Source: Nemertoderma westbladi (lineage: Eukaryota > Animalia > Xenacoelomorpha). From it: a stretch of DNA of 64,000 nucleotides. The DNA lies in NCBI GenBank assembly GCA_032718475.1, contig JAUCBJ010000961.1, positions 1-64,000 on the forward strand. The letters are read 5' to 3'. Positions 1,731 through 40,643 of this stretch are shown here, piece by piece. The translations under genes and the position numbers were made by a program. The notes under the pieces were generated by a model, which was not told where the DNA came from, did no database searches, and saw only the letters and a list, made by a program, of their open reading frames with translations. Numbering within the stretch: the first letter of the stretch is position 1; each line of letters begins with the position of its first letter.

Positions 1731-1741
1731 CTAGGTTCTCA

Positions 1742-2080
1742 GTTCTAGGTAGTGCGTTGATATCTCGGTCAGAGTTCGATACCTACTCAATTCTAAGTTG
1801 GATAGTTGATATCTCGGTCAGAGTTCGATACCTACTCAGTTCTAGGTAGTGCGTTGATATCTCGGTCAGAGTTCGATACCTACTCAGTTCTAGGTAGTGC
1901 GTTGATATCTCGGTCAGAGTTCGATACCTACTCAGTTCTAGGTAGTGCGTTGATATCTCGGTCAGAGTTCGATACCTACTCAGTTCTAGGTAGTGCGTTG
2001 ATATCTCGGCCAGAGTTCGATATCAACTCAATTCTATGTTGGTTAGTTGATAGTTACGGCCAGAGTTCGATAACTACTCA
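1742..2080. repeat. 48-bp minisatellite, about 6-7 copies
   Basis: Unit GTTCTAGGTAGTGCGTTGATATCTCGGTCAGAGTTCGATACCTACTCA recurs every 48 bp (tctagg at 1841 and 1889), directly abutting the LINE truncation point. Confidence 0.95.
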
Positions 2081-8726: not shown

Positions 8727-9503
8727 TTTATTTCAACATGAACATTTTGTAATAATTGAATTACTTCAGATGATCGATCGAAATATTTTGTAAATTTCGA
8801 AAGACTACAACGCTAGACAGACAGACAGTAGAGACCCCCGCCCCCACACCCACACCCTCCCTTGTGCTGTAGATTGAACTTTAGTTAGACTGCTGTAGAT
8901 TTTTTTGCGTTTTGACCTCAATTTGTTATTTAATAAAAACAAGGGACTTAAATTTCTCTACTTTTCAAGTTATGCAGTTCTAGAACAATTTAAAAATTAG
9001 CTTCCATAAAAAACAGTAGCTACCATTAATAACTAACTGACTGACTAACAACACATAATAAATGTACTACTTCGCCCTGTCGACACCCCCTGCAAATTTT
9101 TTAACCAGTAATTTTTTTTTTTTGTAATTTTTTACTTTTTTCGTGTTCTAGTCTAGCTACCATGACTCAGAAATTATTATTAAATAATAATTTATGATAA
9201 TTATTTTTTGATACACCTATACGATTTCAAAAAAAAATATGTTATATATTTTTTACTTGAGTATAAAAAAAAGTACAAGATAGTACCAAATAAAAATTTA
9301 GTTACCATCTTCACTGTCAAAAGGTCAAAATATTTGTTCTAGAACAGAAAACCCCATGATATTTCTAATAGTCATTATCATGGTCAACAATTTTTTAAAA
9401 GGCGGGTGCACCACGGGACACATAGCAAATTAATGCCTTAAATTATTCTCTGTGTTCAGAATAATTAACTTTATTACTCTCCAGTAAAAAAAATTACATT
9501 ATC

Positions 9504-10886
9504 ATGAACATTTGTAAACTGTTGGTAATTATAATATCGGTGTTATTAGAAATGTCACTGAAACTTAATTTTAGTGAAACTGATAACGATAATTCGTGTT
9601 TAAATTCCACTGAAATACTGGGTGTTTTCTTGAATGACCCTGGCGGTGGATTCAGTCCCTATAAGATGGCGTCTCCCGAAGGTACCGTGACTATTGCTCA
9701 ACATCAACGCGCATCGTTGAGAGTTATTGGATCCGGGTTGCGAGATCAAATGCGTATCAAACTGACATCGTCCCCAGCCGCAAAAGGGGTTAGCTGTAGT
9801 TCGTTACCTACAAGTGAGATATTTACCGTAAGCGAGGTGGATCGGTCCAATTCCACGGGTTTAGTGAACGTCCACCTCGAGACTGATGATTCGTACCACA
9901 TCTGTTTCGCGCTCCCATCCTCGGATAATTTCTACCACGCAGGAACCTCCAAGTGGACTGTGGTCCACGTTGTCTACGAGTTGCCAATATATGCCAAGAC
10001 TTTGTTTGTTATCGGGCTTTTATGCTTTTCCGGTTTATTCAGCGGGCTGAATCTCGGTTTGGTTGGCATTGATTTGACCGTTCTCCAGGTGTTAATGAAC
10101 AGCGGCGAACCTAATGAGTTGAAATACGCCAAGGAGATTTACCCAGTTAGAAAGCACGGCAACTACCTGCTCTGCTCTCTGCTGTTCGCCAACACTTTCG
10201 TTAACGCCTTTATGACGATTCTTCTCGGGGGTTTATTTCAGGGCTATCTGGCTGTTGCGTTTTCGACATTTGCGATCGTGATATTCGGCGAAATAATCCC
10301 GCAGTCTATTGCATCCCGGAATGGTCTCGCTCTCGGCGCCAAAACAATACTGATTACCAAGATAATCATGCTCGCTACTTTCCCACTATCATATCCAATA
10401 GGTAAGATTCTAGATTTTACTCTTGGTCGCGAAGTGGGTGTGATTTACAACCGTCGCCAACTCAAAGAGTTGCTGCGTGTTACCGGGGAGCCAGCTGATC
10501 TGGCTAGCGACGAGATGGATATTATCAGTGGAGCCTTGGATATGCATACAAAGACAGCGCTGGAGGTAATGACACCTCTGGAAGATTGCTACATGCTTGA
10601 TTCAAATGTTACTCTCAACTATGGAACTATTACCGAAATTAAAAATAATGGTCATTCTAGAATACCGATTTATGAAGGGCAGAGATCCAACATTGTGGGT
10701 TTGATTTGGATAAAAGACCTTTTGCTAATTAATCCCATCGAAAACATACAAATTAGTGCGCTACTCACCACATATCAGCACCCTGTAACCAAGGTGAAAC
10801 CCGATACAACACTCGGAGTACTGTTTCAAGATTTCAAAAAAGGGCGCTCCCATTTAGCTTTCGTGGAGAGGCAAAACCCCCCAAGA
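9504..10886 (+). CDS. CNNM: CNNM/ACDP metal (Mg2+) transporter, exon 1: signal peptide, extracellular domain, DUF21, CBS pair
   Basis: FSGLFSGLNLGL, YAKEIYPVRKHGNYLLCSLL, IVIFGEIIPQ, VMTPLEDCYML, GHSRIPIYEGQRSNIVG and FKKGRSHLAFV match the CNNM family. Best donor is AGA|GTGAGT at 10886/10887, phase 0; alternatives are discussed in findings. Confidence 0.92.
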
Positions 10887-11220
10887 GTGAGTGAGAACGA
10901 AAACGATTCCGCGGTTCAAACGGGAAATAAAATTATATATTGTTTTGGTTAGCTTGGCGTTAATTTCCCGTTTAAAAATTATACATTATTAAATATTTTC
11001 ACGGCTCTCTCCATTTAAAGGCATCTTGTTTTACCGATCACTTTTTTTTGTTCACGTGTTAAATTCTAAAATTTATTTGTAGTTTTGTATGTTGGTTATT
11101 TGTCATTTAACATAACGTTGAAATTTCATTGTCTAAAAGCCAGTGCGTAGTGTAATTATTATAATACTTAATGTTGTAATTTTGCTTCTCAATCTCATTT
11201 ACGTGAGTTGTTATGAAATT

Positions 11221-11469: not shown

Positions 11470-11597
11470 TGTCTCGAAATTTGTGTCGCCGGGGATGGTG
11501 AGGAAGCGGAGAGAAAATAATATATTTCTTAAATCAGCTTTCACCTTAAAATATGACAATTGCTTCCAAAACAATATATAATTTTTAAATCTTCAAG

Positions 11598-12320
11598 ATC
11601 GTTGGATTGTGTACATTAGAGGATGTTATTGAAGAAATATTCCAAGAGGAGATTGTTGATGAAACTGACCTGATCACGGACAACCGCACTAAACGTGCGA
11701 TACCTGATCGAACAACTGCAAAGACTGTTACATGGTCGAAGTCGGTATCTCTACTTCGCCGGCCCAGTAAATACCTCGTCCTTTCCTACCAACTAAAGTC
11801 CGCAGCTGCCAGTTTTCTAAGACAGGAGGTTGTTCCCTTTTCGGTTGCGTACATGAGTACACCGATACTGCACAAACTCTTAGAGAAGTCCACCTGCATT
11901 AAAGTTGCCCCCGGGAAAATTTTATTTCGAGGCGACGACAGTAGACAAGCCGTTGACTTCAATTTAATTTTGGAAGGTCGAGTTTATTTCACATCATCCA
12001 ATGGAGATCTAAGACTCGATAGTTGTGCGTTTAGCTATTTTGGTTTAAAGTCGTTATTGCCACGACAACGGGGCCGGGGGTCATCCCTGGCGACGCAGAC
12101 TAGCGAGAGAGCTTTACTGTCAACCTACCGTTGGTCCACGGATGAGTCGAACTCAATCGTGGACGCGGTCGCCACTGGACTGCCGAGTTACAGCGTGGTC
12201 GCCGCCACTGAGGTCGTCTACCTAAAGATCAGACGCTCCCATTACCGGGTTGCCATATCTAGTTACAAGGATATATTCGCTAATATTAGTAGTAACTTAC
12301 CAGAGAGAAATAGCGATTAG
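11598..12320 (+). CDS. CNNM: CNNM exon 2: end of CBS2 plus cyclic-nucleotide-binding-homology domain, stop TAG
   Basis: Acceptor CTTCAAG|ATC, phase 0. IVGLCTLEDVIEEIFQEEIVDETD and DFNLILEGRV..FSYFG are conserved CNNM motifs. Spliced product about 701 aa. Confidence 0.9.
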   Translation: MVGLCTLEDVIEEIFQEEIVDETDLITDNRTKRAIPDRTTAKTVTWSKSVSLLRRPSKYLVLSYQLKSAAASFLRQEVVPFSVAYMSTPILHKLLEKSTCIKVAPGKILFRGDDSRQAVDFNLILEGRVYFTSSNGDLRLDSCAFSYFGLKSLLPRQRGRGSSLATQTSERALLSTYRWSTDESNSIVDAVATGLPSYSVVAATEVVYLKIRRSHYRVAISSYKDIFANISSNLPERNSD

Positions 12321-14381
12321 CTAAATTATAAGTTACTGAAATATATTTAAGTACTGAAAATTGTCTGATTTCTTCTGTCACTGGTGTTCTGGGTATGACC
12401 TCATTAGGATTCAACTCAGGTTATCCTTTATTATCTTAATAATAATCTATAACAGTGGCTATTTTAAATAGTTAATATTTTCCATATTATTTATCAGTCA
12501 TAGCCGCGCGCGCGCAGCTGTGATAATGCATTAGATGATGGATTGGTGTAGTTAGTGCGCAATTCGGATTACTTAATGCTTCCTGGGCTGGGGAATGAAT
12601 CCATCAATAGGTGTTGGTAGTGTAAATGATTCAGCCCTGTTCTCGGAGGCAGTGCTTCTTCTAGCCTATTAATACTATCCTATTAATTTAACTATTGGCG
12701 CGGAATAAAGTGAATGAAGTTGCACCACTGTTAGTCTTTACACAACCTATACTCCTATGTATTCATACATTATAAATAAGGGCCTGATTATTATTTACGT
12801 AATCGTGTAAACGGGATTTCATTGAATTTTGCTGCTGCAACCATGGCCACCTGTTCACCATGGTTACACTCTGCCATGTATATTAATCGTTGACAATAAG
12901 AAGCTACGTGCTTTGCTTTCTCTTTGACGAACTAAGTCAGCAGTTAAACAGCGTGAGATTCCGGATTCGATGGTTAATGGAAATGCTAATTGAATGTGGA
13001 TGATTGCCGACCCAAACTCGGTTTGACGTCCCACAAAAATCCGCGGATACCCTCCAGGGAAATTAGCATTTATTTGCCTTCACAAGACATATATTCTCTT
13101 CACATAAATTTTCCTTTAATATTTAACAAGCCTAGGATGGCCTACATACGTTGACAACACGTGTTGGTGGATTTGTTGTAATCACATTAAAAAAACGAAA
13201 TTGGATTAAACAATTCCAGATTAATGATGTTTCTTCTGAATAAATCAATGATATTAGTAATTAGTCGAGTTGAGAAACCTATCTGTGGGGCTAGCCTCGT
13301 TTTATAAGAGGACTTAGCTTATAGATACACGGTGATCATTTGTTTAATGTTGTCTTACGTGGCTGTCTTGCTCGAATTATGTTAACGTCACGATTACCCC
13401 ATTTACTATTCCGATATACATCCATATGTCTACCGATACGCATGTCTCATCATGTACACACCCTGAATGGTATGGATTCCACATTACTTGATTTATAATG
13501 GGATCCCACGCAATCCTCATTAAGTTACGAATGTGGTATGAAGCGCCATGCCATGTCATATAATACAATACAATGCTGCTATGAGTATGATATTATACCT
13601 TTATTATTCCCGAAACCCAGGAACAACTGGAGTTTCAGATTAATTTCTGCAACTCAGTTCTGTTTTTTATGTTGTTATGTATGTATGTACCGCAACTGCA
13701 CCGGCTATGGTACCGTTGAATGTGAACGGGCTCCGGGTAGTGTACTTCTGGCAATACCGCAAGATTAACAAATGTGTCCAAACTACCTGCCAATGGGTAG
13801 TTCGCCGCTCACGCACCGGTGAGTGTGAACGGGCCTTTAAGTATTAGGAACTATTTATTTCGTGTTTAATATGGGTGAAAACTGGGTTATTTCCCTTGGA
13901 AACCCACAAGGAATTTGAGCTAAAGTTTTTTTTTAATCTGATAATAGCCTGAGTTTTAGGTTTTAACTATTTCCAGTTTTTCCCGAGATGATATCCAATC
14001 AGATAAAATTATTAAATCGTCATGCTCATGCTCATGGCTTCGTTTCGATACATAACGTAGAAAACCCTAAATTTTTGTATATCTTTACATATTATACGTA
14101 GCAGCTACCTGACATTGTTCATCGACAAAGTACAATTTACATAGCAACGAGGTTCTAGTTGTAATATTTCCCAGGGAATAATGTTAAGCTGATGGCGTAT
14201 AAAGTTATAAATCAATAAGTAATCAGGTAATCGCAATCGATGTCGGGTCTTGGGTCGCACATATTGTTAACATATTGTCTTTAAAGATTAGTGGAATCCA
14301 GGAAAGCCATAAATTGGCTTTTCTGGAAGTGAAAGAACAGTAAATCATTTTTTCTCTAATTTAATATTTTTTGTGTTTCAG

Positions 14382-14518
14382 GGAGAACCTTGCTACAGAT
14401 ACGTACCTACGTTCTCAGATGGATGGCGAACAGTTTGTCAATGTCTGGACTATAGCGTCCTTCAACATGGTCAAACGACTTACGAGCGACGTGGATCTGG
14501 TTATCGCGGTGCTCAAAG
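14382..14518 (+). CDS. LARP4: La-related protein 4/4B, La-motif exon (first exon visible)
   Basis: TTTCAG|G GAG AAC..: (R)ENLATDTYLRSQMDGEQFVNVWTIASFNMVKRLTSDVDLVIAVLK resembles the LARP4 La motif; donor AAG|GTTAGT. This frame is not in the supplied ORF track. Confidence 0.9.
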
Positions 14519-14807
14519 GTTAGTAGTAGACTTATTATATCTACGCGTTAAAACTGAAATACTAATGGAAGGACATTAGTCGCACCCAATCGGGTTAACT
14601 TTAAATTTAACCAGTCTATTACAGTCTATTAAGTTCCATTTATTATATTTATTGAACATAGAGCACCCCGGTCAAAACAAATCAACCCGGGCGCGGTCAA
14701 GTTTAGCGAACGGCCGATCCCTATAGTCATTAGAAAAATAATCAATGCAGTAAGGTGCTACTGGGTTGTTATCATTTGTAATGATATTATTTTATTTTAT
14801 TGTTTAG

Positions 14808-14911
14808 ACTCACATTTAGTTGAGGTAGACGAAGTGAATCTCCGTGTGCGACCTGCTTGTAAACGTTGTATAATCATACTGCGGGAGGTTCCTGGTGAAA
14901 CCCCGATGGAG
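14808..14911 (+). CDS. LARP4: LARP4 La-motif end / RRM start exon (to the first donor)
   Basis: TTTAG|AC: DSHLVEVDEVNLRVRPACKRCIIILREVPGETPME|GTGAGT, compare LARP4 [31 protein letters not shown]. Phases 1 and 0 fit the neighbouring exons. Confidence 0.9.
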
Positions 14912-17900
14912 GTGAGTAAACGTTGTATAATCATACTGCGGGAGGTTCCTGGTGAAACCCCGATGGAGGTGAGTAAACGTTGTATAATCATACTGCGGGA
15001 GGTTCCTGGTGAAACCCCGATGGAGGTGAGTAAACGTTGTATAATCATACTGCGGGAGGTTCCTGGTGAAACCCCGATGGAGGTGAGTAAACGTTGTATA
15101 ATCATACTGCGGGAGGTTCCTGGTGAAACCCCGATGGAGGTGAGTAAACGTTGTATAATCATACTGCGGGAGGTTCCTGGTGAAACCCCGATGGAGGTGA
15201 GTAAACGTTGTATAATCATACTTCGGGAGGTTCCTGGTGAAACCCCGATGGAGATGAGTAAACGTTGTATAATCATACTTCGGGAGGTTCCTGGTGAAAC
15301 CCCGATGGAGGTGAGTAAACGTTGTATAATCATACTTCGGGAGGTTCCTGGTGAAACCCCGATGGAGGTGAGTAAACGTTGTATAATCATACTGCGGGAG
15401 GTTCCTGGTGAAACCCCGATGGAGGTGAGTAAACGTTGTATAATCATACTTCGGGAGGTTCCTGGTGAAACCCCGATGGAGGTGAGTAAACGTTGTATAA
15501 TTATACTGCGGGAGGTTCCTGGTGAAACCCCGATGGAGGTGAGTAAACGTTGTATAATCATACTTCGGGAGGTTCCTGGTGAAACCCCGATGGAGGTGAG
15601 TAAACGTTGTATAATCATACTTCGGGAGGTTCCTGGTGAAACCCCGATGGAGGTGAGTAAACGTTGTATAATCATACTTCGGGAGGTTCCTGGTGAAACC
15701 CCGATGGAGGTTGGTAAACGTTGTATAATAATTATACTTCGGGAGGTTCCTGGTGAAACCCCGATGGAGGTGAGTAAACGTTGTATAATCATACTTCGGG
15801 AGGTTCCTGGTGAAACCCCGATGGAGGTGAGTAAACGTTGTATAATCATACTTCGGGAGGTTCCTGGTGAAACCCCGATGGAGGTGAGTAAACGTTGTAT
15901 AATAATTATACTTCGGGAGGTTCCTGGTGAAACCCCGATGGAGGTGAGTAAACGTTGTATAATCATACTTCGGGAGGTTCCTGGTGAAACCCCGATGGAG
16001 GTGAGTAAACGTTGTATAATCATACTTCGGGAGGTTCCTGGTGAAACCCCGATGGAGGTGAGTAAACGTTGTATAATCATACTTCGGGAGGTTCCTGGTG
16101 AAACCCCGATGGAGGTGAGTAAACGTTGTATAATCATACTTCGGGAGGTTCCTGGTGAAACCCCGATGGAGGTGAGTAAACGTTGTATAATAATTATACT
16201 TCGGGAGGTTCCTGGTGAAACCCCGATGGAGGTGAGTAAACGTTGTATAATCATACTTCGGGAGGTTCCTGGTGAAACCCCGATGGAGGTGAGTAAACGT
16301 TGTATAATAATTATACTTCGGGAGGTTCCTGGTGAAACCCCGATGGAGGTTGGTAAACGTTGTATAATAATTATACTTCGGGAGGTTCCTGGTGAAACCC
16401 CGATGGAGGTGAGTAAACGTTGTATAATCATACTTCGGGAGGTTCCTGGTGAAACCCCGATGGAGGTTGGTAAACGTTGTATAATAATTATACTTCGGGA
16501 GGTTCCTGGTGAAACCCCGATGGAGGTGAGTAAACGTTGTATAATCATACTTCGGGAGGTTCCTGGTGAAACCCCGATGGAGGTGAGTAAACGTTGTATA
16601 ATCATACTGCGGGAGGTTCCTGGTGAAACCCCGATGGAGGTTAGTAAACGTTGTATAATCATACTGCGGGAGGTTCCTGGTGAAACCCCGATGGAGGTGA
16701 GTAAACGTTGTATAATCATACTTCGGGAGGTTCCTGGTGAAACCCCGATGGAGGTGAGTAAACGTTGTATAATAATTATACTTCGGGAGGTTCCTGGTGA
16801 AACCCCGATGGAGGTGAGTAAACGTTGTATAATCATACTTCGGGAGGTTCCTGGTGAAACCCCGATGGAGGTGAGTAAACGTTGTATAATCATACTTCGG
16901 GAGGTTCCTGGTGAAACCCCGATGGAGGTGAGTAAACGTTGTATAATCATACTACGGGAGGTTCCTGGTGAAACCCCGATGGAGGTGAGTAAACGTTGTA
17001 TAATCATACTGCGGGAGGTTCCTGGTGAAACCCCGATGGAGGTGAGTAAACGTTGTATAATCATACTTCGGGAGGTTCCTGGTGAAACCCCGATGGAGGT
17101 GAGTAAACGTTGTATAATCATACTTCGGGAGGTTCCTGGTGAAACCCCGATGGAGGTGAGTAAACGTTGTATAATCATACTTCGGGAGGTTCCTGGTGAA
17201 ACCCCGATGGAGGTGAGTAAACGTTGTATAATCATACTTCGGGAGGTTCCTGGTGAAACCCCGATGGAGGTGAGTAAACGTTGTATAATCATACTACGGG
17301 AGGTTCCTGGTGAAACCCCGATGGAGGTGAGTAAACGTTGTATAATCATACTGCGGGAGGTTCCTGGTGAAACCCCGATGGAGGTGAGTAAACGTTGTAT
17401 AATCATACTTCGGGAGGTTCCTGGTGAAACCCCGATGGAGGTGAGTAAACGTTGTATAATCATACTTCGGGAGGTTCCTGGTGAAACCCCGATGGAGGTG
17501 AGTAAACGTTGTATAATCATACTTCGGGAGGTTCCTGGTGAAACCCCGATGGAGGTGAGTAAACGTTGTATAATCATACTGCGGGAGGTTCCTGGTGAAA
17601 CCCCGATGGAGGTGAGTAAACGTTGTATAATCATACTTCGGGAGGTTCCTGGTGAAACCCCGATGGAGGTGAGTAAACGTTGTATAATCATACTTCGGGA
17701 GGTTCCTGGTGAAACCCCGATGGAGGTGAGTAAACGTTGTATAATCATACTTCGGGAGGTTCCTGGTGAAACCCCGATGGAGGTGAGTAAACGTTGTATA
17801 ATCATACTTCGGGAGGTTCCTGGTGAAACCCCGATGGAGGTGAGTAAACGTTGTATAATCATACTTCGGGAGGTTCCTGGTGAAACCCCGATGGAGGTGA

Positions 17901-20900
17901 GTAAACGTTGTATAATCATACTTCGGGAGGTTCCTGGTGAAACCCCGATGGAGGTGAGTAAACGTTGTATAATCATACTTCGGGAGGTTCCTGGTGAAAC
18001 CCCGATGGAGGTGAGTAAACGTTGTATAATCATACTTCGGGAGGTTCCTGGTGAAACCCCGATGGAGGTGAGTAAACGTTGTATAATCATACTTCGGGAG
18101 GTTCCTGGTGAAACCCCGATGGAGGTGAGTAAACGTTGTATAATTATACTACGGGAGGTTCCTGGTGAAACCCCGATGGAGGTGAGTAAACGTTGTATAA
18201 TCATACTGCGGGAGGTTCCTGGTGAAACCCCGATGGAGGTGAGTAAACGTTGTATAATCATACTTCGGGAGGTTCCTGGTGAAACCCCGATGGAGGTGAG
18301 TAAACGTTGTATAATTATACTACGGGAGGTTCCTGGTGAAACCCCGATGGAGGTGAGTAAACGTTGTATAATCATACTTCGGGAGGTTCCTGGTGAAACC
18401 CCGATGGAGGTTGGTAAACGTTGTATAATCATACTGCGGGAGGTTCCTGGTGAAACCCCGATGGAGGTGAGTAAACGTTGTATAATCATACTTCGGGAGG
18501 TTCCTGGTGAAACCCCGATGGAGGTGAGTAAACGTTGTATAATCATACTACGGGAGGTTCCTGGTGAAACCCCGATGGAGGTGAGTAAACGTTGTATAAT
18601 CATACTTCGGGAGGTTCCTGGTGAAACCCCGATGGAGGTGAGTAAACGTTGTATAATCATACTGCGGGAGGTTCCTGGTGAAACCCCGATGGAGGTGAGT
18701 AAACGTTGTATAATCATACTTCGGGAGGTTCCTGGTGAAACCCCGATGGAGGTGAGTAAACGTTGTATAATCATACTTCGGGAGGTTCCTGGTGAAACCC
18801 CGATGGAGGTGAGTAAACGTTGTATAATCATACTTCGGGAGGTTCCTGGTGAAACCCCGATGGAGGTGAGTAAACGTTGTATAATCATACTACGGGAGGT
18901 TCCTGGTGAAACCCCGATGGAGGTGAGTAAACGTTGTATAATCATACTTCGGGAGGTTCCTGGTGAAACCCCGATGGAGGTGAGTAAACGTTGTATAATC
19001 ATACTTCGGGAGGTTCCTGGTGAAACCCCGATGGAGGTGAGTAAACGTTGTATAATCATACTACGGGAGGTTCCTGGTGAAACCCCGATGGAGGTGAGTA
19101 AACGTTGTATAATCATACTTCGGGAGGTTCCTGGTGAAACCCCGATGGAGGTGAGTAAACGTTGTATAATCATACTTCGGGAGGTTCCTGGTGAAACCCC
19201 GATGGAGGTGAGTAAACGTTGTATAATCATACTTCGGGAGGTTCCTGGTGAAACCCCGATGGAGATGAGTAAACGTTGTATAATCATACTTCGGGAGGTT
19301 CCTGGTGAAACCCCGATGGAGGTGAGTAAACGTTGTATAATCATACTGCGGGAGGTTCCTGGTGAAACCCCGATGGAGGTGAGTAAACGTTGTATAATCA
19401 TACTACGGGAGGTTCCTGGTGAAACCCCGATGGAGGTGAGTAAACGTTGTATAATCATACTTCGGGAGGTTCCTGGTGAAACCCCGATGGAGGTGAGTAA
19501 ACGTTGTATAATCATACTGCGGGAGGTTCCTGGTGAAACCCCGATGGAGGTGAGTAAACGTTGTATAATCATACTTCGGGAGGTTCCTGGTGAAACCCCG
19601 ATGGAGGTGAGTAAACGTTGTATAATCATACTACGGGAGGTTCCTGGTGAAACCCCGATGGAGGTGAGTAAACGTTGTATAATCATACTTCGGGAGGTTC
19701 CTGGTGAAACCCCGATGGAGGTGAGTAAACGTTGTATAATCATACTACGGGAGGTTCCTGGTGAAACCCCGATGGAGGTGAGTAAACGTTGTATAATCAT
19801 ACTACGGGAGGTTCCTGGTGAAACCCCGATGGAGGTGAGTAAACGTTGTATAATCATACTTCGGGAGGTTCCTGGTGAAACCCCGATGGAGGTGAGTAAA
19901 CGTTGTATAATCATACTTCGGGAGGTTCCTGGTGAAACCCCGATGGAGGTGAGTAAACGTTGTATAATCATACTTCGGGAGGTTCCTGGTGAAACCCCGA
20001 TGGAGATGAGTAAACGTTGTATAATCATACTTCGGGAGGTTCCTGGTGAAACCCCGATGGAGGTGAGTAAACGTTGTATAATCATACTGCGGGAGGTTCC
20101 TGGTGAAACCCCGATGGAGGTGAGTAAACGTTGTATAATCATACTACGGGAGGTTCCTGGTGAAACCCCGATGGAGGTGAGTAAACGTTGTATAATCATA
20201 CTTCGGGAGGTTCCTGGTGAAACCCCGATGGAGGTGAGTAAACGTTGTATAATCATACTGCGGGAGGTTCCTGGTGAAACCCCGATGGAGGTGAGTAAAC
20301 GTTGTATAATCATACTTCGGGAGGTTCCTGGTGAAACCCCGATGGAGGTGAGTAAACGTTGTATAATCATACTACGGGAGGTTCCTGGTGAAACCCCGAT
20401 GGAGGTGAGTAAACGTTGTATAATCATACTTCGGGAGGTTCCTGGTGAAACCCCGATGGAGGTGAGTAAACGTTGTATAATCATACTGCGGGAGGTTCCT
20501 GGTGAAACCCCGATGGAGGTGAGTAAACGTTGTATAATCATACTTCGGGAGGTTCCTGGTGAAACCCCGATGGAGGTGAGTAAACGTTGTATAATCATAC
20601 TTCGGGAGGTTCCTGGTGAAACCCCGATGGAGGTGAGTAAACGTTGTATAATCATACTACGGGAGGTTCCTGGTGAAACCCCGATGGAGGTGAGTAAACG
20701 TTGTATAATCATACTTCGGGAGGTTCCTGGTGAAACCCCGATGGAGGTGAGTAAACGTTGTATAATCATACTACGGGAGGTTCCTGGTGAAACCCCGATG
20801 GAGGTGAGTAAACGTTGTATAATTATACTACGGGAGGTTCCTGGTGAAACCCCGATGGAGGTGAGTAAACGTTGTATAATCATACTACGGGAGGTTCCTG

Positions 20901-22330
20901 GTGAAACCCCGATGGAGGTGAGTAAACGTTGTATAATTATACTACGGGAGGTTCCTGGTGAAACCCCGATGGAGGTGAGTAAACGTTGTATAATCATACT
21001 GCGGGAGGTTCCTGGTGAAACCCCGATGGAGGTGAGTAAACGTTGTATAATTATACTTTGGGAGGTTCCTGGTGAAACCCCGATGGAGGTTAGTAAACGT
21101 TGTATAATCATACTTCGGGAGGTTCCTGGTGAATCCCCGATGGAGGTGAGTAAACGTTGTATAATCATACTGCGGGAGGTTCCTGGTGAAACCCCGATGG
21201 AGGTGAGTAAACGTTGTATAATCATACTTCGGGAGGTTCCTGGTGAAACCCCGATGGAGGTGAGTAAACGTTGTATAATCATACTGCGGGAGGTTCCTGG
21301 TGAAACCCCGATGGAGGTGAGTAAACGTTGTATAATCATACTGCGGGAGGTTCCTGGTGAAACCCCGATGGAGGTTAGTAAACGTTGTATAATCATACTT
21401 CGGGAGGTTCCTGGTGAAACCCCGATGGAGGTGAGTAAACGTTGTATAATCATACTTCGGGAGGTTCCTGGTGAATCCCCGATGGAGGTGAGTAAACGTT
21501 GTATAATCATACTTCGGGAGGTTCCTGGTGAAACCCCGATGGAGGTGAGTAAACGTTGTATAATCATACTTCGGGAGGTTCCTGGTGAAACCCCGATGGA
21601 GGTGAGTAAACGTTGTATAATCATACTTCGGGAGGTTCCTGGTGAAACCCCGATGGAGGTGAGTAAACGTTGTATAATCATACTTCGGGAGGTTCCTGGT
21701 GAAACCCCGATGGAGGTGAGTAAACGTTGTATAATCATACTTCGGGAGGTTCCTGGTGAAACCCCGATGGAGGTGAGTAAACGTTGTATAATCATACTTC
21801 GGGAGGTTCCTGGTGAAACCCCGATGGAGGTGAGTAAACGTTGTATAATCATACTTCGGGAGGTTCCTGGTGAAACCCCGATGGAGGTGAGTAAACGTTG
21901 TATAATCATACTTCGGGAGGTTCCTGGTGAAACCCCGATGGAGGTGAGTAAACGTTGTATAATCATACTTCGGGAGGTTCCTGGTGAAACCCCGATGGAG
22001 GTGAGTAAACGTTGTATAATCATACTGCGGGAGGTTCCTGGTGAAACCCCGATGGAGGTGAGTAAACGTTGTATAATCATACTGCGGGAGGTTCCTGGTG
22101 AAACCCCGATGGAGGTGAGTAAACGTTGTATAATCATACTGCGGGAGGTTCCTGGTGAAACCCCGATGGAGGTGAGTAAACGTTGTATAATCATACTGCG
22201 GGAGGTTCCTGGTGAAACCCCGATGGAGGTGAGTAAACGTTGTATAATCATACTTCGGGAGGTTCCTGGTGAAACCCCGATGGAGGTGAGTAAACGTTGT
22301 ATAATCATACTGCGGGAGGTTCCTGGTGAA
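14859..22330 (+). repeat. 57-bp tandem array (~130 copies) built from the LARP4 exon 3' end plus splice donor
   Basis: Unit GTAAACGTTGTATAATCATACTKCGGGAGGTTCCTGGTGAAACCCCGATGGAGGTGA. The first unit overlaps the exon, and a few units are 60 bp (+ATA). Confidence 0.97.
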
Positions 22331-22444
22331 TCGTTATAGTTACTTTAATTAGTTACTTATAGTTAATTACTATTACTAATTACTATTAGTTAATAGTTAC
22401 TTTATTGTCAATCATATTGATGTTAGTTTATTTAATAAGAGTAA

Positions 22445-22905
22445 TATTATTAATATTCCCAGATGGTATCCATTTTTGATAGAGCTACCCAAGCCTTTGC
22501 TTTCCTAACTTCTATGTCCTTTTTGCTACTCTCTATCCATGATCCAAGGTACTGGAAGTCGTCGACCTTCCTTAGTTGATTATTATCAATGGTTGTCAAC
22601 ATTAAAGGTCATGAATTCGGTCTTGGTAGCATTTACATGCAATCCAACCTCCTTAGCAGCCCTCTCCACTTTATTTAGTAGAAGCTGTGCATCTGCTAGC
22701 GTATTAGAGAGCAGGGCGATGTCATCCGCAAAGTCGGTGTCTGTGACTGTAGTTGCCGGATATCTACTACTTCTCCGTTCTTGAAGTGTGAATCCCAGAT
22801 CTTCATCCTTTGTGGCCGTCCTCATTGCGTAATCCAGCACAATTACAAATAGTAATGGTGCTAATGTGTCACCTTGCTGTACGCCAGTCAGGATTGAGTC
22901 TGAGT
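22445..22905 (-). mobile_element. RTE-clade LINE reverse transcriptase fragment (intronic)
   Basis: GVQQGDTLAPLLFVIVLDYAMR..DTDFADDIALL, and further on VDDFQYLGSWIES..KAWVALSKMDTIW. Confidence 0.85.
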
Positions 22906-22913
22906 GTCTGTTT

Positions 22914-23047
22914 ATTTGCATCCCGCAGAACTTCGTGTTGTTTTTATCGACATTGAAGCCTTGAAGGGATTCTATAGTAACTGGTTTATTTTCCTTGTTT
23001 AACGGGTTTTTGTATGGCTATAATAGTCGTTTGGGAATAAACTACAA
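22914..23047 (+). repeat. Dispersed ~135-bp repeat, copy 1
   Basis: Near-identical to 25884-26020 (TTTGCATCCCGCAGAACTTCGTGTTG...GGGAATAAACTACAA). Confidence 0.85.
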
Positions 23048-23128
23048 CTTTATCATAAACGTACTGTCCCTATTTAACTTTTTAACTGGTTTTCTCACAA
23101 TAATTTGTTAACATGATTATCTACCCAG

Positions 23129-23287
23129 GAGGTGAGGGCCTTGTTCTCCAATCCCAGATGTCCCCCGCATCTGTCGTGTCATTATGCCGGGAACGACAAC
23201 TGGTATATATCCTTCGAGACTTCGCAGGACGCCCAGGCAGCATTCGCGTTTATTCGTAGCGAAACCTTTCTTGGGAAAGAGGTTAAG
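23129..23287 (+). CDS. LARP4: LARP4 RRM exon
   Basis: CCCAG|GAG: EVRALFSNPRCPPHLSCHYAGNDNWYISFETSQDAQAAFAFIRSETFLGKEVK|GTAAGT, compare LARP4 EVKGLF..NSNWYITFQSDTDAQQAF; phase 0/0. Confidence 0.92.
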
Positions 23288-25182: not shown

Positions 25183-25549
25183 GCGAGAATTAAAACGCAG
25201 TCTGTAATCCAGTCGACCAACTACCCCAAAGGGTCTACAGCCCAGGGCGCCGCCATGCGGACACCAACGGAAATGTCCCCGGGTGGCGCCGAGCCCCAGT
25301 CCCCCGGTCTGACCTCCTCCCCCCCTCCCCCTAGCAACCAGCAGCCCCTCCCGCCCATGGTAGTGGCTGGACTGCCCCCCTCCCAGACGGTAGCCGCCGC
25401 TCCCATACATATGCACGGGGCGCCCCCTAGCGCCCAGCCGCAGCAACCGCAGACGTTGCAGCTGCTGACCGCGACCCCGGGTTTAGTGGCGGCCCAGACC
25501 CCGATGCAGGTCCAGCAGACAGTCGGGGGCCAGTTGCCTTTAATGCAAA
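25183..25549 (+). CDS. LARP4: LARP4 exon (RRM end ARIK plus Pro/Gln-rich region)
   Basis: TTCCAG|GCGAGAATTAAA = ARIK, the conserved end of the LARP4 RRM; donor A|GTGAGT, phase 1. Confidence 0.88.
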
Positions 25550-25883
25550 GTGAGTGTGTTTGCTCGGCTTACTGTTAGTTATCGAATCTCTATCACATTA
25601 GGTATCCTAGACTCGGACTGAAATAGGTTTAAAGGACGGAAGCTCTAATCTCTACGTGGTTTATATTTTATTTTACGAATTTTCCAATGTAAACAAAAGG
25701 ATCATAACTTAGACCGCTGAACTAATAAATAAAATTATAAAAAACTTTTTAAAATGACGAGTTACCCTAATAATCCAACCATTTTTGTCCGGGTAACATT
25801 TTTTGCCCTAAAGTATATAAACCTATTTAACCTCTTGTTGTTGGATATTATTGAACATTGCTTCGCGGTTGCGGTGTGTATAA

Positions 25884-26020
25884 TATTTGCATCCCGCAGA
25901 ACTTCGTGTTGTTTTTATCGACATTGAAGCCTTGAAGGGATTCTATAGTAACTGGTTTATTTTCCATGTTTAACGGTATTAATTGGATGGCTATAATAGT
26001 CGTTTGGGAATAAACTACAA
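25884..26020 (+). repeat. Dispersed ~135-bp repeat, copy 2
   Basis: Near-identical to 22914-23047. Confidence 0.85.
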
Positions 26021-26186
26021 AATTAACCTATTTATAATTCGTTTATTTGTGTTATTTTTCGTGGACAGCACTCTCTCTGCTTCTAATTTCTATTTTTCTA
26101 TATGTATATCTATATTATAATATCGCTCACCTATATTCGTGGCTCGCCCCCACATTGTAATCGTTGAATTAATATCTTGTTTGTAG

Positions 26187-26464
26187 ATCTACCTGGAGGT
26201 TCCGTGATCATACCGGGTGTCGGTGGACAGACACCCACGTCTATGGTGACCCCCACTGGCGGTGCGCAGCCCTACCTGGGCCAGGGCGGTATGCCGCCGG
26301 CGGCGGCGGCCGCCTCCCTAGCCGCCGCGGCCCAGTACATCCAGCAGACCCCCTACTCCCCCCAGGCCGGGGGCCAGGCCCCCCACTACCGATCCTTCCC
26401 AACCACGCCGGTCTCAGCCGGTCTGCAGTTACAGTCCGGAGCCCCACCAGCCGCCGCCGCCCAG
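26187..26464 (+). CDS. LARP4: LARP4 low-complexity exon
   Basis: TTGTAG|AT (phase 1) to CAG|GTACAC (phase 0); GC-rich block within AT-rich introns, in frame with both neighbours. Confidence 0.8.
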
Positions 26465-26705
26465 GTACACCAATCCTGCGATTTATTAGAATTTATTTCA
26501 TTACCAATAAATTTGACTGAAAATCTATGAAGAATTATATTTTTTTGTATTTTTATACCTTTTGAGTATTTTTTTATTAGATACACCCCAAGTCGGGGTA
26601 AATATAAATTATAATATTGGTAATATGTAGGTATGTAGGTATGTACGGTAGAATGTAGTTAAGATTACGTACGCGCACAGTAAATCATAATTATACTAAT
26701 AGTTT

Positions 26706-26882
26706 GGGTCAGAGTAAAACGCGGATCCGGATCAGGATCCGGATTCTATCATTTAACATTGTCCCTATGGAAGTCGACTGAATTTACATTATCCGTATCC
26801 GTATTACATTATCCGTATTACAGGATCCGTATCCGGATCCTGAATCCGGATCCGGATCCGGATCCGCGTTTTACACCTACCC
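26706..26882. mobile_element. MULE-type palindromic MITE with 9-bp TSD
   Basis: TIR GGGTCAGAGTAAAACGCGGATCCGGAT / ATCCGGATCCGCGTTTTACACCTACCC with (GGATCC)n arms; TSD TAATAGTTT at 26697-26705 and 26883-26891. Confidence 0.88.
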
Positions 26883-26986
26883 TAATAGTTTAAGGTAAAA
26901 TATTATATGAAAATTATTATAATTAAGCTAGTAAATGCACACAGTTATTAATTATGGTTATAAATAAGGCAATGCTAGTACGCTTG

Positions 26987-27084
26987 AGTGTTTTATAACG
27001 CTTATTTATGTCTTATAACCTGTACAGATGCTAATTCGTTTATTGTTTTGGTTAGATTCAGTCCTTCTGTAATACTGGTATTCT
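26987..27084 (-). repeat. Partial inverted copy of the 5827-6106 element
   Basis: Reverse complement GAATACCAG..TTACAGAAGGACTGAATCTAACCAAAACAATAAACGAATTAG..ACAGGTTATAAGACATAAATAAGCGTTATAAAACACT aligns to 5891-6009. Confidence 0.8.
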
Positions 27085-27445
27085 GAAAAAAAAAGGAAGT
27101 AGAACAGCAGAAAGTTTCATATACTTCACATATTCGTTTTTAAAACATCCCGAACAGTCTGTTTTTCTTAACTTCGGCCTATGATTGCATTGTATGCCTA
27201 TGGGGGTTTGTCTTTATTTGTATACCTTTGAGACTGTCGTTTGGGGTATATTTAATAATTAGTAACCCAGGCATATTGTGTATGTATCGGTGATCATCTG
27301 ATCTGTTTTAGAGGTCGTTCTTCGGATGATAACGGTAAAAGGAATCGGCCTTAGGGTCGACTATCGTGTTTAGCGTCGTAAAATGTTGTTGTGTTGTTTA
27401 GCGTTGTTGTGTGTTCCTGTTGTTTTATTACAATATTCCCCGCAG

Positions 27446-27741
27446 GTGGCCTATCACCAATCAGCTGCGGCCCTCCAGTACCCCTACTCACAGACTGGCG
27501 GAGGCCACCCTACCGGCTCCCATCTGGTCCCGTCCGGGCATCCCGTGGGCGGCTCCCTCTACGCCATGTCGGGCACGCCCCCTGGCGGCAGCGTGGTCCC
27601 TGTCTCGATCGGGAGCGCCGGCCTGTACAACCCCGGTTCCAACCTGTCCCTGACCACCAACGCGGTCCAGTCCCAGTCTGCCGTCGCCGGCTCCCAAGGG
27701 GCCAACCGGTACCAACAGATACCTCTGTTGTACAACACACC
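27446..27741 (+). CDS. LARP4: LARP4 low-complexity exon
   Basis: CCGCAG|GTG GCC (phase 0) to CC|GTGAGT (phase 2); in frame. Confidence 0.8.
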
Positions 27742-27876
27742 GTGAGTATCTCTTATACAAATAATGAAAGAAAGTTAACTAAAGCAACTCGATATGGAGT
27801 TTAGTTATTATTAATTGCTCAAAACATTGATTAATTATTATAATATGGTTAGGCAATACAGAACGTCGTTATTACA

Positions 27877-28097
27877 GAGACAGGTTGTCCAGGTGGTTAT
27901 AGCGTCTGCCTTCCAATCGGAAGGTCGTGAGTTCGAGCCCATGAAAAGGAATCGCCCAGTTTTCTTTACGCTCTTCACGCAGCTGTAATGGGAACCTGAC
28001 ATATAATGGCGTAGAAAATAAAAGGGTTGGATATGAGTTAGTGTGACGCCCCCCGTCTTATAGGTAACAGCCAAGAGAGAGGAGGAGCCTTCGTTTT
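27877..28097 (+). mobile_element. tRNA-derived SINE (intronic)
   Basis: A-box-like TCCAGGTGGTTA, B-box GAGTTCGAGCCC and a tRNA-like head. The body motif CAGCTGTAATGGGAACCTG is shared with the SINE at 46650 (CAGCGGTATAATGGGAACCTG). No intact acceptor stem. Confidence 0.65.
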
Positions 28098-28168
28098 CAG
28101 TTTTCCACGATAATTTAATCTAAATTTATAACAGATTATTATATTTAATATGTTTTTGTTCCCAACAG

Positions 28169-28352
28169 ATACCAGACAGCTGCTATGGCGACTCCGTCGT
28201 TGTATTGGACGTCGCCCGGTACCGGGTTCGTTGCCGCCACCGGTAACTGGCCGGGCCCCACTGCCGCCTACTACGACCCGGCCACCGGCCTCTTTCAGCA
28301 GGCCATATTCGCGCCGCACGGTCCCGCGACCAACGGCTTCTCCGGCACACAG
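28169..28352 (+). CDS. LARP4: LARP4 exon
   Basis: CAACAG|A TAC (phase 2) to CAG|GTTGGT (phase 0); YQTAAMATPSLYW..FSGTQ. Confidence 0.78.
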
Positions 28353-28808
28353 GTTGGTACTATCGCTATACAACCCAGATATTATGTTTCATTCCTATAA
28401 TAATACATTATATAAGATAAGGATTGACGATGCTGTATTGTGTGCTCCAATATAAAGATTCAGCTTTATTAATCCATTACTATACGCTTGTACTTCTATC
28501 CATTTGTCCATAGGAGTTGAGTTGATATTACATGTAGTCGGAGTGGAGATATTGATTTGTTTCCATTTTTCTCCCGCTGCACTGCGTGATTGATTACTTT
28601 TCTCCTTTCTACTACTAGACAGTAAAGCAATGAGAATTATAAGTTTATATTGACATTAATGGATGTGGAGGGTGGGGGGGGGGGGGGGGGGGGGGTATTC
28701 GATTTGGGACTTCGGAATAACTCTGGCTGGGTATAGTGGGCAGAATAGTGTCTCCGGTCAATTTATGTTTGTCGATTTTAATATTATGTTATTTATATTT
28801 GGTTTCAG

Positions 28809-30068
28809 CCCAAGATCGTTCCTACTATTCCGGCCGCCACGCCTATAGGTAACCACGGCAACCATGGCAGACCCGGTAACTTTCTTGGCCGCAGGACGAG
28901 TCCCAAACCCTCGACGATGGGACCCCGGAGTCTGAGTACCGGGTCGTCTACCGGGGGACGGGACGCGCTCGCCGCCCAACCCGGCCCCGACCCCTCGCCG
29001 CCGTCCCCCCGGGGACCGGGCCACCCGACGGGGCCCCCCGGCGGCCCGGCGTCCCCCCTCCCCCCGGAGCCGCCCGCGGAGCCCCTCAACCCGGTCCGGG
29101 ACTCCCCGCCCGAGGCCGAACGGACTCGCTACGTCGACTCGATCGGGCCGCGACTCAACCGGGGCCTCCCCCCGCCCGGCGCGCCGCACAGACTGCCGCC
29201 CCATCATCCGCGCGCCGGCCAGCCCACCGAGGTCTCCCTCAGCGGGCTCGTCGCCCAGAAGTCGGCGCGGCACCAGCCGACGCAACGTCGCGGCGGCGGC
29301 GTGGCTCCGGCCGTCGGAGTCGGTCGTACAGCGCGGGTCCCGCCGCGGGGAGTCGGACGACGCCTCGGCGACGAGGAACCCTCGGAGGAGTCCGACGGGC
29401 TCCACCACGAAGCCACTCCTCCCGACATGACGGCGGCCCAGTTCCCGCCGCTCCAGTCGACCAACGAGGACGTTGTCGTCGCCTCGGTTGTACAACTCCA
29501 GCCGGTATCTTCGCCTCTCGTTGCTACGAACGGCGGCCACGCGACAACCGCCCCCGTCAAAGACTTTAAGAAATTCTCGTCTCCCGCGGTTGTTGCTGTT
29601 GTTTCCCCGAAACCGGTAGTGGAGTCGACGTCGTTGCCGGCGTCGCCGGTTCGCTCGCCGAGCCCGGTGAATGGCGCCTCGACCGAGTCATCCGGCTCGG
29701 TTAAACCCTCGTCCTCAGTGGACGCGCTATCCGAGGCGGTGGAGTCGTTGGGCTCGGGCGGCTCGCGTCGCAGCTATGCCGACATCGCGAGGGCCCCGGG
29801 ACGGCCGACGGAGGCCTCCGGGGTCTGGAAGGACGACGAGTCGGTGGACAGCGAGCCCAGCGAGCCACCGACGCCGGGAGGGGGCGGGGGGCCCCCGGAG
29901 GAGCGACCCCCGTCGCCCCACGGGGGCGGTCCCCCCCACGGGGGCTACCGACGCGGCTACAACGACCGCGGTTACTACGGGGGCCGAGGCGGCGGTCGCG
30001 GGGGACGCGGTTACTATGACGACAGGCCGCCCCGAGGCGGACGTGGCGGGCGGTCCTTCAGGAACTGA
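28809..30068 (+). CDS. LARP4: LARP4 terminal coding exon (PAM2-like FPPL motif, SYAD motif, RGG tail)
   Basis: TTTCAG|CCC, phase 0, open to TGA at 30068. PDMTAAQFPPL and RRSYADIAR resemble the conserved LARP4 C-terminal motifs (..NFPPL, ..SYAEV). Confidence 0.85.
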   Translation, partial: PKIVPTIPAATPIGNHGNHGRPGNFLGRRTSPKPSTMGPRSLSTGSSTGGRDALAAQPGPDPSPPSPRGPGHPTGPPGGPASPLPPEPPAEPLNPVRDSPPEAERTRYVDSIGPRLNRGLPPPGAPHRLPPHHPRAGQPTEVSLSGLVAQKSARHQPTQRRGGGVAPAVGVGRTARVPPRGVGRRLGDEEPSEESDGLHHEATPPDMTAAQFPPLQSTNEDVVVASVVQLQPVSSPLVATNGGHATTAPVKDFKKFSSPAVVAVVSPKPVVESTSLPASPVRSPSPVNGASTESSGSVKPSSSVDALSEAVESLGSGGSRRSYADIARAPGRPTEASGVWKDDESVDSEPSEPPTPGGGGGPPEERPPSPHGGGPPHGGYRRGYNDRGYYGGRGGGRGGRGYYDDRPPRGGRGGRSFRN

Positions 30069-30734: not shown

Positions 30735-32430
30735 TCCGGGTTGTGTTATGTCACCGGTTTCTTGGAAGTTATATGACGTCATACTATTTCCGGGTTATAG
30801 GAAGGACGCACTACTTCCGGGTAGTATTTCACGGTTTCTTGGAAGTTATATGACGTCATACTATTTCCGGGTTATAGGAAGGACGCACTACTTCCGGGTA
30901 GTGTTTCACGGTTTCTTGGGAGTTATATGACGTCATCCTACTTCCGGGTTATAGGAAGGACGCACTACTTCCTGCTAGTGTTTCACGGTTTCTTGGAAGT
31001 TATATGACGTCATGCTATTTCCAGGTTGTAGGAAGGACGCACTACTTCCGGGTAGTGTTTCACGGTTTCTTGGAAGTTATATGACGTCATCCTACTTCCG
31101 GGTTATAGGAAGGACGCACTACTTCCGGGTAGTGTTTCACGGTTTCTTGGAAGCTATATGACGTCATACTATTTCCGGGTTATAGGAAGGACGCACTACT
31201 TCCGGGTAGTGTTTCACGGTTTCTTGGGAGTTATATGACGTCATCCTACTTCCGGGTTATAGGAAGGACGCACTACTTCCTGCTAGTGTTTCACGGTTTC
31301 TTGGAAGTTATATGACGTCATGCTATTTCCAGGTTGTAGGAAGGACGCACTACTTCCGGGTAGTGTTTCACGGTTTCTTGAAAGATATATGACGTCATCC
31401 TACTTCCGGGTTATAGGAAGGACGCACTACTTCCGGGTAGTGTTTCACGGTTTCTTGGAAGCTATATGACGTCATACTATTTCCGGGTTATAGGAAGGAC
31501 GCACTACTTCCGGGTAGTGTTTCACGGTTTCTTGGGAGTTATATGACGTCATCCTACTTCCGGGTTATAGGAAGGACGCACTACTTCCGGGTAGTGTTTC
31601 ACGGTTTCTTGGAAGTTATATGACGTCATCCTACTTCCGGGTTATAGGAAGGACGCACTACTTCCGTGTAGTGTTTCACGGTTTCTTGGAAGTTATATGA
31701 CGTCATCCTACTTCCGGGTTATCGGAAGGACGCACTACTTCCGTGTAGTGTTTCACGGTTTCTTGGAAGTTATATGACGTCATCCTACTTCCGGGTTATC
31801 GGAAGGACGCACTACTTCCGTGTAGTGTTTCACGGTTTCTTGGAAGTTATATGACGTCATCCTACTTCCGGGTTATAGGAAGGACGCACTACTTCCGGGT
31901 AGTGTTTCACGGTTTCATGGAAGTTATGACGTCATCCTACTTCCGGGTTATAGGAAGGACGCACTACTTCCGGGTAGTGTTTCACGGTTTCTTGGAAGTT
32001 ATATGACGTCATCCTACTTCCGGGTTATCGGAAGGACGCACTACTTCCGTGTAGTGTTTCACGGTTTCTTGGAAGTTATATGACGTCATCCTACTTCCGG
32101 GTTATCGGAAGGACGCACTACTTCCGTGTAGTGTTTCACGGTTTCTTGGAAGTTATATGACGTCATCCTACTTCCGGGTTATCGGAAGGACGCACTACTT
32201 CCGTGTAGTGTTTCACGGTTTCTTGGAAGTTATATGACGTCATCCTACTTCCGGGTTATAGGAAGGACGCACTACTTCCGGGTAGTGTTTCACGGTTTCA
32301 TGGAAGTTATATGACGTCATTCTACTTCCGGGTTATAGGAAGGACGCACTACTTCCGGGTATTGTTTCATGGAAGTTATATGACGTCATACTATTTCCGG
32401 GAAGTAGGAAGGACACTACTTCCGGGTTGT
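30735..32430. repeat. 77-bp minisatellite, about 22 copies, carrying CRE and ETS motifs
   Basis: Unit TTCTTGGAAGTTATATGACGTCATCCTACTTCCGGGTTATAGGAAGGACGCACTACTTCCGGGTAGTGTTTCACGGT; period 77 (cacggt at 30830, 30907, 30984). Confidence 0.96.

Positions 32431-40331: not shown

Positions 40332-40643
<312 letters not shown>

Follow-up and report, generated by a model that had tools for sequence, protein, structure and literature searches.

The LARP4 locus and its minisatellite

We analysed a 64,000-nt stretch of the Nemertoderma westbladi genome (positions 1 to 64,000, forward strand, of contig JAUCBJ010000961.1, assembly GCA_032718475.1; hereafter the window), in which a LARP4 gene carries a large minisatellite at one of its exon-intron boundaries (Table 1). 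The La domain, best matches in the Protein Data Bank (PDB) to human LARP4 and the order of La motif, short linker and LARP4-type RNA recognition motif (RRM) bear out the gene identity given in an earlier reading of the letters alone (the original prediction). The 5' exons, with the PAM2w region, lie outside the window. The La-RRM linker of human LARP4A consists of three residues, HKR (PMC6486636); the unit of the minisatellite thus corresponds to the linker, the first RRM strand and the following loop.

Tandem Repeats Finder reported a period of 57, 130.7 copies and 97% matches, and unit splitting resolved the array into 130 full units and a partial last one, of 13 types with the partial unit included. 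Each unit consists of the last 51 nt of the 104-nt exon, which themselves form unit 1, and the six intron bases of its donor. The only indel among the units is the insertion of a whole codon, ATA, which brings seven units, all between units 16 and 34, to 60 nt; the other full units measure 57 nt. The donor hexamers of the 130 full units are 120 GTGAGT, 4 GTTGGT, 3 GTTAGT and 3 ATGAGT, the GT being kept in 127, and every one has the same phase, 0, as the first. Units 1-6 match the exon exactly, and a dead donor first occurs in unit 7. The first donor is followed by another 129 positions for a donor, the nearest at 14969 and the last at 22286 (126 with GT), and use of the last one would add 2458 amino acids. 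The exon frame has no stop across the array and is open for 2568 codons. Counting the dinucleotides on either side of a potential junction, AG/GT occurs twice per unit, and AG/GTRAGT sites number 120 in the 7.5-kb array versus 2 elsewhere on the plus strand of the window.

The original prediction of about 130 in-frame copies of a 57-bp unit, made up of the last 17 codons and GTGAGT, with a stop-free frame and an almost universal phase-0 GT donor, is confirmed by these counts, seven units being 60 nt long. Its coordinates held for the array as such and needed correction in detail: the G of the first donor is at 14912 (14911 is the last exon base), and the array ends at 22330, not 22339. This end falls inside a unit, at GGTGAATC (22325-22345), and carries an A-to-T change that units 110 and 116 also have; the intron's original beginning either has been lost or is joined at the array end through GGTGA microhomology.

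Table 1. LARP4 features and the minisatellite in the window
Feature	Position	Strand	Evidence
LARP4 exon, second part of La motif; own donor GTTAGT	14382..14518	+	Pfam La E 1.7e-15; PDB 2cqk/6i9b; spliced in X4 contig
104-nt LARP4 exon with the last part of the La motif, the KR linker, and the first strand and loop of the RRM	14808..14911	+	6i9b residues 71-103, E 3.6e-7; X4 contig
Minisatellite, LARP4 exon end and donor	14859..22330	+	Tandem Repeats Finder, unit splitting; DNA runs X1, X2, X3
First (authentic) donor GTGAGT	14912..14917	+	X4 loose end past 14912 = 23129 exon
Duplicated block of 12 variant units, with copies starting at 19043 and 19784	19043..20467	+	Reached by 1 of 300 unit-order shuffles
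Residual intron, 798 nt: AT-rich stretch, fragment of a long interspersed nuclear element (LINE), acceptor	22331..23128	+	RVT_1 E 9.2e-14; depth and loose ends
Next LARP4 exon, rest of RRM, phase-0 acceptor	23129..23287	+	X4 contig; translation
Remaining LARP4 exons, low-complexity C-terminal part	25183..30050	+	X4 records; open reading frames (ORFs)

Presence of the array in short-read data

Of six runs listed, all from one organism, short-read contigs of four were compared with the window, including 13900-14980. Run X1 represents one sample, X2 and X3 together represent one other sample from another study, and X4 a third sample. In X1, an 87-nt contig makes one closed turn of the unit at a depth of 2013, versus 23.5 for the flanking contig. 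With seven X1 contigs as reference, the observed depth ratio was 86-134, and about 100 after allowing for the flanking contig's own array words (factor 1.18), while the mean word multiplicity predicted from the assembly for the closed turn is 93.8; this is a rough check, given that depth is no copy number and X1 may be the source sample. In X2/X3 the tandem junction is present with the same majority variant, and the flanks of this sample have about 20 substitutions in 1 kb. The best array piece of X3 has a depth of 817 against 12-31 for the flanks, suggesting fewer copies, but depth in this run falls with GC content. A further run, X5, covered gene scraps and zero array bins, and it says nothing on the array.

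Since the tandem junction occurs both in X1 and in X2/X3, the array is neither an assembly artefact nor private to one individual. The original prediction would have been withdrawn had the array been missing from spanning raw reads; in short-read contigs, the junction was present in two samples from two studies. For an artefact, or an expansion in one individual, it can be said that among the contigs listed none spans the array and that the 3' junction at 22330 was not seen among the pieces listed. Such an explanation is barely credible next to a high-depth junction with the same majority variant in X1 and X2/X3, a depth ratio near the assembled copy number and variant blocks that are ordered within the array.

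Probable splicing through the first donor

The single contig of X4 at this place is spliced (475 nt, depth 18.3) and joins four exons through the first donor. Its path leads from an exon outside the window to the 14382 exon, skips the 289-nt GT..AG intron, continues through the 14808 exon to 14911 and enters the 23129 exon (the 475-nt record matches 23127-23227). The contig contains unique exon sequence upstream of the unit and one unit only; therefore, the donor used is the first, and the intron that begins there measures 8217 nt. The joint 25549-26187 was also observed in this run, and the other 3' LARP4 joints were assigned from GT/AG and reading frames.

Over 14936-14980 the depth of X4 is 0; over the last units it is 3.3, which the one spliced contig accounts for (3.3-3.4). 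No array-derived contig was present in X4, which is a single run whose individual is not established to carry the array. X4 is labelled "DNA?" and was judged to be RNA solely from splicing; that the run listing has no RNA-labelled holder of the array is no evidence either way, X4 being spliced despite its label. The X4 individual likely carries the array, because it shares variants at 14875, 26257 and 26263 with the carrier sample X2/X3 and because neither X2 nor X3 has a loose end at the donor among those listed. The ladder of proteins with up to about 2500 extra amino acids that had been proposed found no support here, the sole spliced contig using the first donor. First-donor use (14911) with no array-derived contig, the pattern on which the original prediction would have been given up, is what X4 displays, in one run and with carriage not established.

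We conclude, with a probability of roughly three in four, that the array is a real minisatellite which arose by chance local duplication and ordinary repeat turnover, and which is removed with the intron after choice of the first donor. Local sequence cannot choose among the donors, since the 51 nt upstream and the sequence downstream are common to all of them; the first and the inner donors have the same RNA pairing, and the fold of the array is ordinary (z 0.09 versus shuffles). The spliceosome would then pick the first donor by position, through exon definition or 5'-to-3' scanning. The exon measures 104 nt with donor 1 and would measure 332 nt with donor 5. In F7 minigenes, splicing uses the working site that lies farthest upstream and no other; when that site is destroyed, the one after it takes its place (PMC1557585). 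Slipping to donor 2 or 3 would keep the frame, and the last copy would complete the RRM, so that the link between the La motif and the RRM would become longer; such in-frame lengthening, limited to the link, may explain why the array is tolerated. The domains of human LARP4A have no fixed orientation, and its La module has a minor part in RNA binding (PMC6486636).

Several points weigh against this conclusion. The RNA evidence is one contig from one run with the label "DNA?", contigs drop rare forms, and the missing array contig of X4 would fit an allele without the array equally well. The evidence for scanning is mammalian, and the splicing rules of this animal may differ. Finally, compared with the exon-type unit, the four most abundant variants (83, 18, 13 and 7 copies) differ only synonymously, whereas the four rare ones (4, 3, 2 and 1 copies) do not, and a synonymous bias together with whole-codon indels is, as a hint, also what selection on a translated repeat would be expected to produce.

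Unit variants, the open frame and the use of downstream donors

The bias toward synonymous variants has a copy-weighted p of 0.004-0.007, which becomes 0.016-0.024 without C15T, a variant shared with the exon; unweighted, 4 of 8 variants are synonymous (p 0.09). The six intron bases hold three of the eight variant sites, at which the donor is weakened or abolished (p 0.04). It should be noted that all variant tests were post hoc and that the copies are not independent; thus, these values are hints only. The open frame itself says little, because the unit is derived from an exon and adds only two new codons, because one antisense frame is also free of stops (2515 codons), and because most 57-mers behave in the same way: of 3631 non-array 57-mers, 89% would have one or more open frames when repeated in tandem. 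Eight random substitutions avoid a stop 79% of the time.

These data bear on a leaky choice of donor, in which donors 2 to about 4 are used, one to three extra 19-residue pieces are translated between the La motif and the RRM, and the near units and the frame are mildly selected. Exons ending at donors 2, 3 and 4 would measure 161, 218 and 275 nt, the six units nearest the exon are unaltered, with the first dead donor in unit 7, and both the synonymous bias and the concentration of variant sites in the intron bases would fit; in addition, two donors beyond the first are used in CBS and 6-16 (PMC1557585). We nevertheless consider leaky choice unlikely. X4 has no contig over 14936-14980, exon-like end units are normal for repeat turnover (PMC3087553), and C14875T, shared by exon and array, explains part of the synonymous bias without translation.

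A long functional ladder, in which far donors are used and tens to 129 repeats form a beta-solenoid or a long spacer, would draw on the 2568-codon frame and, again, on the synonymous bias. AlphaFold2 folded ten units into a regular two-strand repeat with a pLDDT score (predicted local distance difference test) of 89.6 and a predicted template modelling (pTM) score of 0.84, versus 69.8 and 0.26 for the antisense-frame control. However, when given random sequence in perfect repeats, AlphaFold2 produces beta-solenoids that are confident but unrealistic (PMC11795689), the five models spread from 55.6 to 89.6 with a single control, and the ten-unit model had no PDB match at E <= 0.001; the model was therefore set aside as evidence. 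An mRNA with many units should be the easiest to assemble, its array words being multiplied, yet X4 has none, and the motif is repeated in no homologue (0 of 63). A long ladder is accordingly very improbable.

A further possibility is that the array acts as RNA and tunes LARP4 output as a decoy for the U1 small nuclear ribonucleoprotein (snRNP), as a telescripting platform or as a track for recursive splicing. The 120 AG/GTRAGT sites within 7.5 kb make binding of U1 to nascent array RNA likely, to judge from the motif; such binding would be a by-product, with no sign of selection for it. The array contains no AATAAA or ATTAAA to protect, which leaves the proposed telescripting platform unsupported. 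Ratchet points of recursive splicing are AG/GT sites that follow a polypyrimidine tract. For the AGs of the unit, the pyrimidine share is 0.35-0.53, versus 0.59-0.76 at the four exactly placed acceptors of the gene; with no such tract before AG/GT, the suggested stepwise splicing substrate is not borne out either. A function as RNA is, altogether, improbable.

If carriers used several donors, array length and unit variants would set an in-frame LARP4 ladder with a tunable La-RRM spacer, under selection on the frame and with sequence passing between the exon and the array. Such selection and exchange together would explain why the abundant variants are all synonymous, and the array would act as a store of 130 copies from which the end of a conserved coding exon is rewritten. 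We regard this broader scenario as unlikely. A human study from 2023 on variable numbers of tandem repeats (VNTRs) reportedly found downstream donors used in proportion to allele length.

Removal with the intron through the first donor, the reading that we prefer, makes the locus an extreme natural test of first-donor choice, in which the true donor of a conserved RNA-binding gene is followed by about 120 identical strong ones, in a setting outside mammals and amphioxus. It is also a warning for gene prediction, in which the open frame of 2568 codons invites a false giant exon. Its importance would grow if downstream donors are used in carriers or if variants pass from the array into the exon.

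Origin and turnover of the array

Among 67 homologous LARP4 hits, the motif of the unit was found once in 63 and twice in none, and it was not matched in 4. The genomic read-through of 49 of these 63 passes into V and unrelated sequence at the same position, although the homologue query itself ends in donor read-through, which favours hits that break off there; the other 14 continue with E/D-V-K. The shared breakpoint in 49 of 63 homologues indicates that the intron predates the array, which by this comparison of sequences grew at an existing intron.

Donor and exon are joined within the unit at a shared GT. The array would have been born by a short chance duplication at GT microhomology (exon TGT, donor AGT) and may have grown by slippage or unequal crossing-over. 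Tandem arrays are common in the window: there are ten, covering 34,346 of 64,000 bases (54%), and each of six array units tested matches its own place only. One of them, a 48-bp minisatellite at 1738-2080, repeats in tandem part of the LINE frame next to it (ORF 1-1782, minus strand) and has a stop in its units; therefore, satellites here form from arbitrary local sequence.

The exon's CTG codon is retained in units 1-6 and 126-129, and CTT dominates the middle. The block duplication (Table 1), the clustered variants and the exon-type ends represent ordinary turnover with protected ends, as in the amphioxus mirages discussed below. C14875T, which corresponds to the unit variant C15T, occurs as an allele of the exon in X4 and in one X2/X3 haplotype. 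Its presence in the exon points to exchange between exon and array that would import only changes tolerated in the exon; sequence may thus occasionally pass between array units and the coding exon.

Other features of the window and searches elsewhere

Just upstream of the 14382 exon lies a two-exon gene for a CNNM metal transporter (9465-10949 and 11589-12320, plus strand), and the LARP4 exon that precedes the 14382 exon in RNA is not in the window; hence the CNNM gene is probably nested, on the same strand, within a LARP4 intron of more than 14 kb. The lengths of contigs in X1-X3 imply the same CNNM-LARP4 adjacency. The LINE reverse-transcriptase fragment in the residual intron (about 22455-23017, minus strand) is of high copy. 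Two pieces of 93 and 48 nt at its end (22913-23057) recur, 99% and 90% alike, at 25884-26030, in the next-but-one LARP4 intron some 2.97 kb away. A 44-nt inverted repeat around GGATCC-rich sequence at 26703-26885, of high copy in all four runs compared, is probably an element in a LARP4 intron that resembles miniature inverted-repeat transposable elements (MITEs).

Just behind LARP4, at 30755-32427, there are 22 copies of a 77-bp unit containing TGACGTCA and ACTTCCGG, which we take to be motifs like the cAMP response element (CRE) and the ETS site; this array is possibly an amplified promoter piece. Farther downstream we found a perfect (CTA)104 run (40332-40643) and an intronless BBS4 gene (43992-45620, plus strand), which is about 45-55% identical to bilaterian BBS4, has no close relative among the best 120 of 582 matches and contains a short 15-bp coding repeat near its end (45396-45460). 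A 23-bp satellite of more than 17 kb, preceded by a short outlier array, lies within 46226-64000 and runs off the window.

An exact 30-mer of the LARP4 array had no match in a metagenome scan. In the corresponding protein-pattern scan, 599 stretches matched and one locus (L001) resulted, which is a chance match in antisense that no LARP4 exon accompanies. Nothing was returned by word-index protein searches, which are weak, with either the La exon or the exon plus repeats, and the repeat-rich hits P0128 and P0177 have no LARP4 motif. Rfam had no match in positions 1-47000 of the window.

Comparison with known systems

The original prediction held that no satellite of this type had been described. 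As to kind, this did not stand, boundary-spanning minisatellites being reported from five human genes (Borensztajn et al. 2006, PMC1557585) and from amphioxus (Ebner et al. 2010, PMC3087553); as to scale, it stood, the array exceeding the 5-26 donors given in these sources. The VNTR of F7 intron 7 has 5-9 copies of 37 bp (PMC1557585); the arrays cited in the same source are those of LMNB2 (100 bp, 10-15 copies), PDGF intron 4 (81 bp, 16-18 copies), CBS intron 13 (15-20 copies) and interferon-inducible 6-16 (IFI6; 25 pseudo-sites). Only the first donor is used in F7, LMNB2 and PDGF, and the first three in CBS and 6-16 (PMC1557585). As in these human arrays, the first LARP4 unit lies across the exon-intron boundary, so that copies of the donor extend into the intron, and the first donor is the one found in RNA. 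The LARP4 array differs in having 130 donors over 7.5 kb, at least five times the largest array in that source, in a unit that is mostly exon (51 of 57 nt, versus 4 of 37 in F7), in the in-frame, stop-free arrangement of all donors and in its occurrence in a non-model animal.

The amphioxus "mirage" minisatellites of Adh3 and of the globin genes BflGb6 and BflGb9 leave splicing undisturbed and evolve in concert, with the end units left out (PMC3087553). They resemble the LARP4 array as tandem copies of an exon boundary in an invertebrate, with concerted evolution that spares the end units. The copy number of the LARP4 array is far higher (the globin arrays given as examples in that source have 3-6 units), and length polymorphism is not firmly established for it. 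The intron-gain model of Rogers (cited in PMC3087553) also involves tandem AG/GT copies inside a gene; however, the LARP4 intron is old, one breakpoint being shared by 49 of 63 homologues. The La module of human LARP4A (6i9b) has the same order of La motif, short KR linker and RRM, and the unit starts at the linker; this segment is unrepeated in any of the 63 motif-bearing homologues.

A literature search, with most subscription papers beyond its reach, found no boundary-spanning array of about 100 copies and none in LARP4, and the array is larger than any in PMC1557585 and PMC3087553. The LARP4 array is thus a boundary-spanning minisatellite of the type of F7 intron 7 (IVS7) and of the amphioxus mirages, known in kind and new in scale.

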